The notes beneath the pieces are model-generated. The model ran no database searches. It worked only from the letters and a program-made list of their open reading frames with translations, and was not told where the DNA came from. A stretch of 64,000 nt of DNA, from IMG/VR virus record IMGVR_UViG_3300020056_000010; one strand, written 5' to 3'. Of this stretch, positions 791-33,403 are shown piece by piece; positions within the stretch are counted from its first letter, which is position 1; the number at the start of each line of letters is the position of its first letter. This stretch comes from an uncultured virus (IMG/VR IMGVR_UViG_3300020056_000010) (lineage: Duplodnaviria > Heunggongvirae > Uroviricota > Caudoviricetes). The position numbers and the translations under genes are program-made.

Positions 791-798
791 ATAAATCA

Positions 799-828
799 AA
801 AGGGAGGCCTTCCTAGGTGCCTCCCTTT
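799..828. terminator. Bidirectional intrinsic terminator
   Basis: AAAGGGAGGC / GCCTCCCTTT stem with T-runs on both strands. Confidence 0.85.
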
Positions 829-1192
829 CTATCTGTTTGTTTCGATGTACAGCACCCGGCTAGCTTTCCATTCGGTACTAGCGACTCACCGACCATCCAA
901 AAGCTGCAGACTTATGGATGGATTTTTTTGGGTACGTTCGCGTAATTGCAGGCTTTCCCCGTGCGCCATAAGTAACGAGGACTGAGTTCTTACTGCCTGG
1001 TCGAGTTTTCCTCAGTCCTCGCTAATTCTGGTTTTCACGTCACCGGTATTTCACGGGCGGTATATTCACCAGAATGTTCTTGCCCGACCTTGTTTACTCA
1101 CGACGCGCAGGCTACGTCAGGCAATATATCTCTTTAATCCATTTTTGCCACTTTAGCGGCTGAGGGTTTGGAACCTCTCAATATTGCCTTGA
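829..1192 (-). ncRNA. Candidate large structured non-coding RNA, family unknown
   Basis: ORF-free and GC-richer than its flanks. Several 7-11 bp stems, with a sigma70 promoter upstream and a terminator downstream. Confidence 0.7.
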
Positions 1193-2744: not shown

Positions 2745-3239
2745 TTATTTTTTCTCGTTTGCCTCTTCAATGACCATTTTTTCGTACTCGGCACGATCTA
2801 CAACACCTTCAGCAAGTAAACGTTCGCGGTTTGCCATATGCTGTGCTTGAACGTCTTCTTTAGATCCGCCAAAGTAAGCCACACAATGACCTTCTTCGAT
2901 CATAATGTCAGTCACCAAACGACCATCCGCTGCACGGAAATCACCAAGGATACGACCAAACTTACCCTTCATATCTTCGCCTGATTTATCTTCTGTGGTA
3001 ATGAGTTTTGCGTCTTTTTCTAGCAGAGAATAGAGTCTATCCTTTGCTGCAAGACCAAAGAGTTTTTCTACTCTGTCTGAAGTTCTACTTTCAGGAGTGT
3101 CAATACCCATGATTCGAACTCTTTCGTCTTTAAGGCAGATACCGAAACCTAGATCAATGTCTACATCTACAGTATCACCATCAACTACTTTAATGACGTG
3201 AACGTCGTATTCATTTTGCGTTGCCATGTGTTCCTCCAC
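2745..3239 (-). CDS. Thermonuclease (SNase-like) family protein
   Basis: VVDGDT, RIMGIDTPE and KFGRILG motifs. Confidence 0.85.
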   Translation of the reverse strand: MEEHMATQNEYDVHVIKVVDGDTVDVDIDLGFGICLKDERVRIMGIDTPESRTSDRVEKLFGLAAKDRLYSLLEKDAKLITTEDKSGEDMKGKFGRILGDFRAADGRLVTDIMIEEGHCVAYFGGSKEDVQAQHMANRERLLAEGVVDRAEYEKMVIEEANEKK

Positions 3240-4630: not shown

Positions 4631-5194
4631 ATGAGAATTTTAATATTACTTTGCGTGTTATTTCTTGGGTCTGCTGCAGCGGCTCAGGAAGCGCCTGAAT
4701 GTCCGGAAGGCTACGTTTGTACTCAATCGGGCACAGACAGTACTATTAGGTCTGAAGGCAATATGACGACTACGATCGTTCAACCGCCGCCGTCTGCAGT
4801 TTCACCACAATTTAGCGCCGGCAGTAACAGCGATCTGTGTACAATTGGTGTTGCCGCTGCGGTGCAAACTCAGATATTAGGTATTTCTGGTGGCGCAACA
4901 TTTACTGAAGAAAATTGTAAGCGATTGAAGAACGCTAAAGTATTGTATGATATGGGAATGAAAGTTGCGGCTGTATCTGTAATGTGTCAAGATGAGAATG
5001 TTTTTGACGCGATGATGCAAGCTGGAACGCCTTGCCCTTATGACGGACAAATCGGCGATGCTGCAAAGCTTGGCTGGGAAACGCACAAAGAAAAAATAAG
5101 AGAGGAAACAGGTGGCGGAAATCTTAAAGAAAATGCTAAGAACGCAGCTCCTTTTGCTGGCCTTGGTATTTTGGCCTTCTTACTCTTCCTCTGA
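4631..5194 (+). CDS. Exported Cys-containing protein with C-terminal hydrophobic anchor
   Basis: GGAGG RBS at 4621, signal peptide MRILILL...AAAA, paired Cys, hydrophobic tail. Confidence 0.7.
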   Translation: MRILILLCVLFLGSAAAAQEAPECPEGYVCTQSGTDSTIRSEGNMTTTIVQPPPSAVSPQFSAGSNSDLCTIGVAAAVQTQILGISGGATFTEENCKRLKNAKVLYDMGMKVAAVSVMCQDENVFDAMMQAGTPCPYDGQIGDAAKLGWETHKEKIREETGGGNLKENAKNAAPFAGLGILAFLLFL

Positions 5195-31151: not shown

Positions 31152-32117
31152 ATGGAACTACTCACATTATGGAGCCTTGTCGGCTTCCTGCTTGCTGCAT
31201 ATGCGGTTATAGCGAACGATTCAGTGCAAACTCTCGGCACGTGGATGGCATCTAACAATGAGAGATTTAACTATAAAGTACTATGGGCAGCGGCTTCTGC
31301 TGTTCTTCTAGCAACACTCTGGTACGGTTGGAGTGTTAATGGTGGCGACATTAGTTATGGTCGTTTGAATAAGATCCCGTGGCAAGAAGTACAATGGTAC
31401 CACGCCGCAGCACCAGCTATTCTTGTTGCTTTAACACGAATTGGTGTACCAGTTTCAACATCATTCTTAGTTCTATCAGTATTTGCTTCAACCTTTGTGT
31501 TGGAAAAAATGTTGATGAAATCTATTATGGGTTATGGCGTAGCAGCCTTATTTGCTTACTCAGTATGGTTTGCCATTAATAAGTTTGCTCATAAATGGTT
31601 TGATGAAACTCAACCAGTAAGTGAAGGCAATAAACGTTTTTGGCGGATTGCTCAGTGGGTTGCTACTGGCGGATTGTGGTGGACTTGGTTGTCACATGAC
31701 ATGGCAAACATTGCGGTATTCCTCCCGCGTCAAGTACCTGTAGATCTTATGATTTTGATCTCATTTGTATTTGTCGGTGGTTTGTTCTTTATGTTTAGAG
31801 AACGTGGTGGTAAGATCCAACAAATCGTTTTGGAAAAACATAACACAAGATATGTTCGTTCAGCTACGTTGATTGACTTATTCTATTGGTTGTGTTTATA
31901 CTTCTTTAAAGAGCTAAACGATATTCCTATGAGTACAACTTGGGTATTCGTTGGTTTGCTAGCAGGTCGTGAACTTGCGATGGCTACATACTTTGGTAAG
32001 AAGAAAACAAAATCTGTATTTCCTCTTGTAGCGAAAGACTTTGGAAAGATGATGGTAGGACTTGGAGCTTCAGTTGCTCTTGTACTAATGGTACATTACA
32101 TTATCAATCCAGTGTGA
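31152..32117 (+). CDS. PiT/PHO4-like inorganic phosphate transporter
   Basis: Multi-TM, with duplicated ANDS/HDMAN and PVSTS/PMSTT signature-like motifs. Confidence 0.65.
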   Translation: MELLTLWSLVGFLLAAYAVIANDSVQTLGTWMASNNERFNYKVLWAAASAVLLATLWYGWSVNGGDISYGRLNKIPWQEVQWYHAAAPAILVALTRIGVPVSTSFLVLSVFASTFVLEKMLMKSIMGYGVAALFAYSVWFAINKFAHKWFDETQPVSEGNKRFWRIAQWVATGGLWWTWLSHDMANIAVFLPRQVPVDLMILISFVFVGGLFFMFRERGGKIQQIVLEKHNTRYVRSATLIDLFYWLCLYFFKELNDIPMSTTWVFVGLLAGRELAMATYFGKKKTKSVFPLVAKDFGKMMVGLGASVALVLMVHYIINPV

Positions 32118-32152
32118 CATTTTTGTCAAGTAAAAAAATTTTACAGAAGGGG

Positions 32153-32181
32153 TTGACATTTAACTCCTTTTGTGTTATATA
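32153..32181 (+). promoter_or_regulatory. sigma70-type promoter of the tmRNA
   Basis: GGGGTTGACA-17-TATATA. Confidence 0.7.
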
Positions 32182-32185
32182 TAAG

Positions 32186-32586
32186 AAGTGGACGTTGAAA
32201 CAAAATAAAAACGGATCGGACCGCGGGGCAGTACCGCGCACCTCCACCATAAACACATGAGGATATAATGAATTGGGATTGGCACTGGATTAGTTGGTTT
32301 AAAGGAACACCTTTTCAATGGGGTGATTTTAGATTCAATAGTGGCAAGCCATATAAAAGTTATAGACTTGGACCATTACTTATTCGTGTGTTTATGTAAG
32401 CACATGTGTTTATGATGGGGGTGAACAAGGATCGACGGACGGAATAGTTGAGTGGAGTTCACCGTGTTGACCTACGTTATTCGGTCAAACAAACTAAATG
32501 CAAACGATAACTTTGCACCATCTGGTTACGCACTAGCTGCATAACACAGGGGGCTGGCCACTTGCCTAGCAACAGAAAAGTGGCAC
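32186..32586 (+). ncRNA. ssrA: Circularly permuted two-piece tmRNA
   Basis: Acceptor piece ends CACCTCCACCA (32239-32249). Coding piece starts GGGGGTG (32417), giving a G3.U70 pair. Tag ANDNFAPSGYALAA* at 32500-32544. Confidence 0.92.
32268..32399 (+). CDS. Trp-rich 43-aa ORF inside the tmRNA intervening segment
   Basis: GAGGA RBS; MNWDWHWISWFKGTPFQWGDFRFNSGKPYKSYRLGPLLIRVFM. Confidence 0.6.
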   Translation: MNWDWHWISWFKGTPFQWGDFRFNSGKPYKSYRLGPLLIRVFM

Positions 32587-32623
32587 ATAACACATTTAAT
32601 AAAAGTAATAAGAAAGGGACAGG

Positions 32624-33403
32624 ATGTTTAATAAACTACTAATTACAACAGCATTGGTCTGCGCAGCAGGCTCAGCAATGGCCGCAGACGTTGGCGGTGA
32701 AATTACAACTGAGATTGCAGAAAACGCAGCAGGCAACTGGGGTGCAACAACATCCTTCGACCTAGGTATCGCATCAATGGGTACAGCAGTACCTGCATTT
32801 GCTGCTATTGATTTGGACATGAACACAGACGGTGATATTACCCTTGATGAATGGCAAATTGGTACAGTAGTAAATGGAGATGCAATGATCTCATTCGGAG
32901 ATCAAGGTAATGTTTGGATCGATTCAGAAGACGGTTCAACATTGGCAGATCCAGCCATGAAAGAATCTATTGCAGTTAAAGCCCTTGGAGCAAAAATGGG
33001 TATTAGCTGGAAAGATATCGAAGCGGATGTAACAGAAATCGAAACAGTAGCCGGTATGTACGAAATGAATCTTGGTCTTGTTAATCTACAAGCCGCAGGT
33101 TCATACAACATGGTTACTGAAAACTTTGCGATTGGTTCTCGCAGTGATTATCTGTTGAACGACAATATTGGTCTTGGTGCTGCAATCACTTATGATTCAG
33201 GATCAGAAGATATTGGTTTTGAAGTAGATGCTGGCGCTTACGGTGCTACAGTATTCGTAAACGGCGATCAGGATGAAATGCTTCAAAACGTAGGTGGTTC
33301 TTACACTTACGGCTTCATCGGGCTTGAGCTCGAAGCAGGAGCGTCATACAACCTAGACAGCGAAGAATTGACACCTACTGCATCTGTTTCGTTCAGCTTC
33401 TAA
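32624..33403 (+). CDS. Outer-membrane porin-like beta-barrel (alphaproteobacterial type)
   Basis: AMA|A signal peptide, amphipathic strands, C-terminal SVSFSF. Confidence 0.75.
   Translation: MFNKLLITTALVCAAGSAMAADVGGEITTEIAENAAGNWGATTSFDLGIASMGTAVPAFAAIDLDMNTDGDITLDEWQIGTVVNGDAMISFGDQGNVWIDSEDGSTLADPAMKESIAVKALGAKMGISWKDIEADVTEIETVAGMYEMNLGLVNLQAAGSYNMVTENFAIGSRSDYLLNDNIGLGAAITYDSGSEDIGFEVDAGAYGATVFVNGDQDEMLQNVGGSYTYGFIGLELEAGASYNLDSEELTPTASVSFSF

Follow-up and report, generated by a model that had tools for sequence, protein, structure and literature searches.

What kind of molecule is encoded by an ORF-free, GC-richer stretch of an uncultured marine T4-like phage, and does it work as one RNA or as a series of separate RNA domains? 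The DNA analyzed here (hereafter the window) is 64,000 nt long, and the stretch in question occupies positions 795–1193 on its minus strand. It forms a transcription unit that is predicted to yield an RNA of ~400 nt, from promoter to terminator. The preliminary description of this locus as ORF-free, GC-richer than its surroundings, and bounded by a promoter (1227–1200) and a terminator (799–828) was confirmed on each of these points. The GC content was 0.46–0.51 over positions 701–1200, compared to 0.31–0.41 in the flanks. The longest ORFs in the RNA stretch encode 42 and 46 aa on the plus strand and 27 aa on the minus strand. When a conserved ORF was sought across the window and two related contigs, L006 and L009, none survived: the small ORFs of the window are reduced to 26, 18, and 20 aa in L006, at 87.5% DNA identity, and are cut up again in L009.

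The promoter on the minus strand (1227–1200, TTGACA-16-TATATT) is of the sigma-70, early type. It matches the consensus at 11 of 12 positions and places the predicted start near 1193. Early expression of the RNA is predicted solely from this promoter type. The promoter scan returned 23 promoter-like sites, compared to 15.6 ± 4.3 in shuffled sequences, and the site at 1227 is one of four near-consensus sites that lie on the minus strand within 1.6 kb (1227, 1945, 2225, and 2709). Each of the four has a GG(G) before it and a small ORF or the RNA studied here after it. The small ORFs of the 1200–2709 region (minus strand) matched no PHROG or Pfam family. This layout is reminiscent of the PeSL cassettes of T4-type phages, in which an early promoter joined to a stem-loop is described as bordering the variable genes of hyperplastic regions (PMC2839356, PMC4122927).

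At the other end, the unit is closed by a terminal hairpin that also serves as a two-way terminator (793–828, minus strand; stems 799–808/819–828), with a 10-nt loop (809–818) and a U-rich tail. An A-run precedes the hairpin 799–828 and a U-run follows it. The hairpin is shared with the convergent ORF 479–790 on the plus strand. The terminator scan (3 found, 2.9 expected) omitted this hairpin because its loop measures 10 nt and the scan accepts loops of 3–8 nt; a separate hairpin scan recovered it. When the unit was considered as a riboswitch or cis-acting leader, no regulated gene was found on the same strand, as the unit ends at 799–828 and the next gene (479–790) is on the opposite strand.

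The minus strand of the unit folds at −123.1 kcal/mol (z = −4.93), and none of 100 shuffled sequences folded as well; for the plus strand, z was −2.47. G-U pairs are common on the minus strand; in the first module described below (module A), for example, they account for 8, 5, 6, 9, and 10 cells of five different pairs. These would be A-C mismatches on the opposite strand, and the minus strand is therefore the RNA strand.

The replication genes in the window are of T4 type and code for a UvsW-like helicase, a family B DNA polymerase, a ribonucleotide reductase, and topoisomerase II subunits. Among cultured phages, the DNA polymerase has its best relatives in Synechococcus myoviruses, at an identity of only ~45%. 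By the type of these genes and the distance of this polymerase, the phage is classed here as an uncultured, deep-branching T4-like phage. Two tRNA genes are located at 14.1–14.4 kb, and a permuted two-piece tmRNA of the alphaproteobacterial type, with the tag ANDNFAPSGYALAA, is encoded at 32149–32635 (plus strand). This tmRNA type is no more than a hint at the host. The ORF that precedes the tmRNA (31152–32117) was considered as a gene 32 homologue, which PHROGs did not bear out.

No known RNA family was recognized in the unit. With Rfam 15 at the gathering score, positions 700–1350 gave no match, and this includes GOLLD, ROOL, RNase P, 6S, the group I intron, T-box, tmRNA, manA, and wcaG. At E ≤ 10, nine weak matches were obtained in the same interval, the best of which scored 21.1 bits vs a cut-off of 92. 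Six of them include the terminator hairpin, adjoin it, or fall in the ORF on its far side. Another two cover the promoter region, with one of these extending into the 5′ end of module A, and the ninth starts at the hairpin and continues into modules G and F. None of the modules was matched by Rfam in 16 related loci either. ARAGORN detected no tRNA-like part in the unit. A blastn search with the whole RNA, the 12 kb around it, and a type-I E-F-G unit gave no match in 50,697 phage records, from which the records nearest to the window are possibly absent. Exact or degenerate words of modules A and B, among them a 27-mer from the core of B, had no match in 185,579 prokaryote genomes; A and B are therefore not exact copies of host sequence in those genomes. 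Accordingly, mimicry of a CRISPR repeat by B was rejected, as no array-like matches were present in the same genome set. Taken with the covariation described below, in which both sides of helices change in modules A, E, and G, and with the lack of a conserved ORF, the Rfam result bears out the earlier view of a structured RNA without an assigned family.

Six metatranscriptome runs contain the RNA stretch. Contigs of all four runs that were aligned cover it, and their summed depth over 751–1200 exceeds that of the flanks, although strand, ends, and level are not readable from such contigs and their uncovered parts carry no meaning. The contigs of three runs end at 1173–1181, a short way downstream of the predicted start, with cover resuming in further contigs from 1230 on; contig X12 of the fourth run (866–1408) crosses the promoter. 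This cover is a weak hint of transcription and of a start near 1193, because the contigs reveal neither strand nor level. Contigs of two runs, X19 and X20, depart from the window sequence at 1074 and 1119 and continue unlike the window. The continuation at 1074 resembles the arrangement seen in contig L002, and other module orders may exist in the same RNA libraries.

The unit proved to be a lineage-specific chain of modules rather than one indivisible RNA of 360 nt. In the window, the order is promoter-A-B-D-E-F-G-terminal hairpin, with no tRNA gene between modules A, B, D, E, and F-G. Module A (1082–1189, minus strand) folds as a three-way junction with pseudoknots. The junction is closed by P1 (1181–1189/1119–1127) and holds the stems P2 (1174–1177/1162–1165) and P3 (1156–1160/1147–1151), and the loop of P2 pairs with a joining strand in pseudoknot 1 (1169–1172/1138–1141). 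The P4 hairpin (1114–1118/1102–1106) has a loop of 9 nt, and a second, putative pseudoknot between this loop and the 3′ tail (1108–1112/1082–1086) is invariant. The alignment of this module (A1) contained 27 distinct copies, after matches without an A body upstream had been dropped (12 loci, read by eye). In A1, 91.2% of the cells were paired, compared to 33–43% when the partners were slid. Both sides change at 15 of the 32 pairs, and the covariation score was 0.395 vs 0.06–0.09. The both-side changes were seen in P1, P3, P4, and pseudoknot 1. The P4 loop was fixed by the search pattern, so its invariance is by construction, and the register of pseudoknot 1 in the window, which is off by one column in A1, was read by eye. 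A match to the same promoter type is present just upstream of A in 14 of the 27 copies, and module D is found there in four more.

Module D (976–1021, minus strand) is a long hairpin with an 11-bp stem (976–986/1011–1021) and a conserved 24-nt loop. Nine distinct copies were found, and their location varies: directly behind a promoter, ahead of A or of E, or in the interval from a tRNA to F. Stem sequences are not the same in all copies and yet remain complementary, as read by eye. Module E (929–967, minus strand) is an H-type pseudoknot between the G-rich loop of a small hairpin and a downstream CCC, with a second hairpin in between. In its alignment (A4, 19 distinct copies), 99.5% of the cells were paired, compared to 3–57% with slid partners. 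The pair in the pseudoknot is G-C in 17 copies, A-U in 2, and discordant in none, and the second hairpin changes on both sides at two pairs. Core parts of E were fixed by the regular-expression search pattern.

Module F is a hairpin (893–921, minus strand; stem 893–899/915–921) with the self-complementary word CUGCAG (904–909) at its tip. Among 54 distinct F hairpins, the tip was read by eye as a perfect palindrome in 29 and as none in 25. Over F windows of 50 nt, a search for palindromes was uninformative (40 of 54 positive, compared to a mean of 28.3 in shuffled sequences). Module G (829–894, minus strand) is an H-type pseudoknot formed by stem 1 (888–891/873–876) and stem 2 (878–882/859–863), followed by a small hairpin (833–852). 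Its alignment (A2) included 42 distinct copies, namely 5 of the window's type and 37 of 38 others, with L233 left out. Here, 97.9% of the cells were paired vs 18–39% with slid partners, and 7 of the 15 pairs change on both sides. The informative pair of stem 1 is C-G in 36 copies and U-A in 6, and an alternative 3′ partner of stem 1 is broken in exactly those six U-A copies. Much of the invariance of stem 1 was imposed by the search pattern. The pair counts for all these modules come from related sequences, and several words were fixed by the search patterns; the support for the helices is therefore real but overstated.

The local stems of the preliminary description correspond to P1 of module A, to P3 and P2 (its hairpins 1147–1160 and 1161–1180), to the outer stem of B (1025–1032/1068–1075), to the D stem, to hairpin F, and to G stem 2. 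All of these helices are conserved in relatives, and the local stems recur in uncultured viral and metagenome contigs, mostly with compensatory changes.

The loop of the terminal hairpin (7–11 nt) holds a self-complementary 6-nt word in 54 of 54 distinct F-G units; in shuffled loops, the count averaged 2.6 and never exceeded 9 of 54. The word is CUGCAG in 32 units, CCUAGG in 20 (among them the window, at 812–817), and CUCGAG in 2. The three words differ from each other by paired changes only, and the word cannot pair within its own loop. This pattern hints that the terminal loops could pair between copies of the RNA through loop-loop contacts. The three words may represent as few as two changes among related sequences, and the palindrome could just as well have a role in the DNA or befit a two-way terminator. 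Among the 35 GC-rich hairpins in the window, such a loop was seen in only three, namely the terminal hairpin and two that are inside ORFs. One of these two, the hairpin 4661–4691 with CUGCAG in its loop, was considered as a second RNA element. It is located within an ORF that starts like a signal peptide, and it is therefore not a second RNA element.

The relatives show how freely these modules are combined. One viral contig is identical to the window across the whole unit, and L006, at 87.5% identity, differs by indels and swapped sub-modules. In three other contigs, which include L004 and L005, only the RNA pieces align (95%, 91%, and 100%), and they are reordered, whereas the flanking genes do not align. 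The fused order of the window is maintained in L003 and L006. In L009, the order is D-A-B-E-F-G, and in L004/L005 it is another hairpin, B-A, two tRNA genes, and F-G. L024, L026, and L065 have D-A followed by other RNAs and tRNAs. In L030, L031, and others, tRNA-Asn lies 8–9 nt after A, and in L045, A is followed by a small ORF and then by a two-piece tmRNA. Altogether, the modules were found in dozens of otherwise unrelated contigs. For 58 distinct F-G units, 250 nt or more of the preceding sequence was available. In this upstream part, E was present in 26, a tRNA within 250 nt in 12, and the C-terminus of a gene-32-like protein in 8; the gene-32-like label stems from a match of one of these eight to phrog_224 (E = 3e-10). 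A and B together were upstream of only 3 of the 58.

Several other features of these relatives were observed. The tmRNA of L045 (77–386), similar to that of the window, is on the same strand as A and the small ORF upstream of it, apparently in one operon. At L233 2–238, and also in seven further contexts, the F-G-terminal-hairpin unit is placed as the 3′ UTR of a gene-32-like gene for a single-stranded DNA-binding protein, after the stop codon and with no promoter in between. Downstream of A in L024, L026, L030, and L031, at least one copy per tRNA operon was found of a long-stem RNA module starting with CUCUGUUUUCACAUGCAC and ending in the complementary strand. Close to where some of these stable-RNA operons begin (L049 664, L057 208, L092 403, and L096 403), a hairpin precedes the word CGCUCUUUGAAAA. 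This combination resembles the hairpin-plus-boxA antitermination signal of rRNA operons and is absent from the unit in the window. Finally, L055 572–743 gave a sub-threshold match to manA (40.6 bits, cut-off 55.2; E = 7.6e-8). This stretch sits between two tRNA genes, in an operon headed by A.

From these data, the following course of events is proposed. The host RNA polymerase would start at the 1227–1200 promoter and stop at 799–828. The ~400-nt noncoding RNA would fold as beads on a string, namely A, B, D, E, F, G, and the terminal hairpin, with every domain being a separate evolutionary, and probably also functional, unit. In relatives, A heads stable-RNA operons (tRNAs, and in one case a tmRNA), the F-G-terminal-hairpin unit closes such operons or follows a gene-32-like gene, and B is grafted onto different RNA scaffolds; D is likewise an opening module and E a closing one. 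In the window, the modules may act in trans, as stable RNA domains that would either scaffold a partner, protein or RNA, or act as its decoy. The 3′ unit may shield the end of the RNA and pair with a second copy via the words in the terminal loop and the F loop. The fusion is free of tRNA genes and has been kept intact, and trans-acting domains are therefore favored over a mere leader and trailer. We give the reading of the unit as an array of trans-acting stable RNA domains about an even chance of being correct.

The modules could instead be cis-acting bookends, with A as a 5′ leader and E-F-G-terminal hairpin as a 3′ trailer that stabilize stable-RNA operons or guide their processing; the unit in the window would then have lost its tRNA cargo and be functionless. 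The positions of the modules fit this equally well, as the majority of A and F-G copies have tRNA genes next to them. A tRNA gene is present within 450 nt downstream of A in 18 of the 27 distinct copies, and in eight copies tRNA-Asn begins 8–9 nt past the stretch taken as A. Similarly, a tRNA precedes F-G in 12 of the 58 units and a gene-32-like ORF does so in 8, the terminal hairpin comes directly after F-G in all 54 units examined, and the tRNAs of L004/L005 lie between A and F-G. However, the cargo-less unit has remained intact in three diverged versions (window, L006, and L009), with compensatory changes, and A stands alone ahead of terminators in L028 and L084. Moreover, every module is single-copy within the 64-kb window, so these are not a general terminator or leader device, and the other terminators of the phage lack the special loop. 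We regard the cis-acting explanation as possible, though not probable. Processive antitermination by A was rejected because terminators directly follow A in L028 and L084; the unit in the window also ends at one. A Rho-specific effect of A would still be compatible with these arrangements.

The same modularity bears on the preliminary proposal of a single structured RNA of ~360 nt held together by long-range pairs. The part of this proposal that stood is a structured noncoding RNA with its own promoter and terminator; the single RNA with long-range pairing did not, as the modules are reordered or used singly. An integrated RNA of ~360–400 nt, forming a tertiary unit through long-range pairs and loop-loop contacts as large ornate RNAs do, would be consistent with the folding of the entire minus strand, which is better than that of shuffled sequences (see the z score above), and with the fused order shared by the window, L003, and L006. 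In addition, the P4 loop of A and module E both contain GCCUG, the complement of the D loop word CAGGC. This loop word varies, however, being CAGGA in L049 and UAGGA in L065, the modules are ordered differently in L009 and L004/L005, and A and B accompany only the three F-G units mentioned above. The long-range pairing suggested earlier (939–943/1103–1107) is unsupported because both of its sides belong to local helices that covary on their own, with which it competes, and because A and E occur apart in most relatives. An integrated tertiary unit is thus unlikely.

Module B raises a separate question, as two T-loop-like strings had been noted in this arm and led to the suggestion that the RNA binds tRNAs. 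B is a hairpin (1025–1075, minus strand; outer stem 1025–1032/1068–1075) with a nearly invariant 47-nt core. Both strings, GUGAAAUAC (1046–1054) and GUGAAAAC (1031–1038), are present, and the core holds three UGAAN words (UGAAU, UGAAA, and UGAAA), including those within the two strings. A 41-nt portion of the core is identical in eight viral contigs. A search pattern with free B stems returned the same 10 contigs, and the stems of B therefore do not vary. Only three variant forms of B were found, and their changes are in loops or lead to a wobble pair. The outer stem, read by eye across eight distinct flanking contexts, changes in step. B forms a hairpin of its own in the window, L009, and L069, and is placed between other modules in L002, L004, and L005. 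In L001, L007, and L008, it forms the tip of a hairpin in a different RNA of ~130–170 nt, and the hairpin that carries B in this RNA has a plain 4-nt loop in L055. This second RNA (~2950–3170 on the RNA strand of L001, and also in L007, L008, and L055) is conserved, structured, and closed by a 6-bp stem. In L007 and L008, the B-carrying RNA directly precedes the ribosome-binding site of an ORF that appears MazG-like by eye.

If B were a double T-loop that binds the tRNA elbow, the RNA could bind, shield, or sequester tRNAs, for example against tRNA-cutting defense systems. Read by eye, GUGAAAUAC is shaped like a T-loop closed by a G-C pair. The layout of B, in which a short helix is surrounded by an apical loop and two internal-loop strands that each hold a UGAAN word, is similar to the arrangements described for RNase P and T-box Stem I (PMC3664808), and RNAs with B sit among tRNA genes in L001, L002, L004/L005, L009, and L011. 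This proximity to tRNA genes is, however, common to all modules of the region and not particular to B. According to the same source, the double T-loop module that recognizes the tRNA elbow has the pattern AGNNA...UGNNA, invariant in all three known instances (PMC3664808). B shares with it the UGNNA-type words in the apical loop and the flanking internal-loop strands, as well as the vicinity of tRNA genes, but AGNNA, the partner word, is absent from the conserved core of B, where all of the words are U-first. B is therefore not a canonical member of the double T-loop group, and the earlier claim of paired T-loops fails this comparison. No Rfam match to T-box or RNase P was obtained. Binding of the tRNA elbow by B is accordingly improbable. 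A K-turn in the internal loop of B was also considered and rejected, since the GA dinucleotides that are needed beside the stems are missing (read by eye).

Finally, the run of early promoters and family-less small ORFs, which is of the kind described for PeSL cassettes (PMC2839356, PMC4122927), might suggest that there is no RNA gene here and that the stretch is a chance GC-rich spacer, a small-protein gene, or a regulatory promoter-terminator spacer of the PeSL type, which we consider very improbable in view of the strong covariation, the lack of a conserved ORF, and the presence of the modules in dozens of otherwise unrelated contigs.

With the unit read as an array of stable RNA domains, several known RNAs are available for comparison. 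In phages, GOLLD and ROOL are located next to tRNA genes. In one study, GOLLD, ROOL, and OLE are presented as RNA-only homo-oligomers that assemble partly via covarying kissing loops (PMC12286853). The RNA in the window resembles these ornate noncoding RNAs in that the loop words of the F-G family change only in step; it differs from them in being shorter, openly modular, and without an Rfam match. The T4 RNAs rnaC (species 1) and rnaD (species 2) are, according to PMC9697503, small stable RNAs of "yet unknown functions". They are encoded with tRNA genes, as annotated in the T4 record, and the F-G unit likewise closes tRNA operons in relatives. Unlike rnaC and rnaD, which lie in the tRNA cluster, the unit in the window is located 13 kb from its tRNA genes. 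Moreover, rnaC ends in a tRNA-like arm (read by eye), whereas the RNA in the window has no tRNA-like part. When homology to rnaC and rnaD was sought, blastn found none in the phage records, and model R1, which represents module A only, found none in the tRNA region of T4.

The unit also resembles tmRNA, as both are stable RNAs with a row of small H-type pseudoknots, and the same phage encodes a tmRNA. It differs from tmRNA by having no tRNA-like domain, no reading frame for a tag, and no match to the tmRNA model in 700–1350. In E. coli, a 3′ external transcribed spacer from a tRNA operon acts as an sRNA sponge and is thus a trans-acting by-product of a tRNA transcript, and the packaging RNA of phage phi29 multimerizes through loop-loop pairing. 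Neither of the two is homologous to the RNA in the window. The family of the phi29 RNA should presumably be in the Rfam library, and the Rfam scan of the unit gave no match. By analogy with ROOL, GOLLD, and OLE, the RNA could be a self-assembling particle, in which the CCUAGG word of the terminal loop and the CUGCAG word of the F loop would join copies into dimers or bigger assemblies of RNA alone, and the invariant B, grafted onto several scaffolds, would dock a tRNA or protein during host takeover. We put this idea forward tentatively, as a minority possibility.

Stable RNAs of unknown function have been a feature of phage tRNA regions since species 1 and 2 of T4. The present analysis indicates that an uncultured marine T4-like lineage carries a set of uncatalogued, pseudoknot-rich RNA domains, which are shuffled like protein domains and are kept even without tRNA genes. 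At 40–110 nt each, the modules are small enough for direct structural and binding work. Two features offer testable handles, namely the near-invariant 47-nt hairpin that has moved between scaffolds and the six-letter word of the terminal loop, which is always self-complementary. If self-pairing through this word is true, RNA-only quaternary assembly would extend to small modular phage RNAs.
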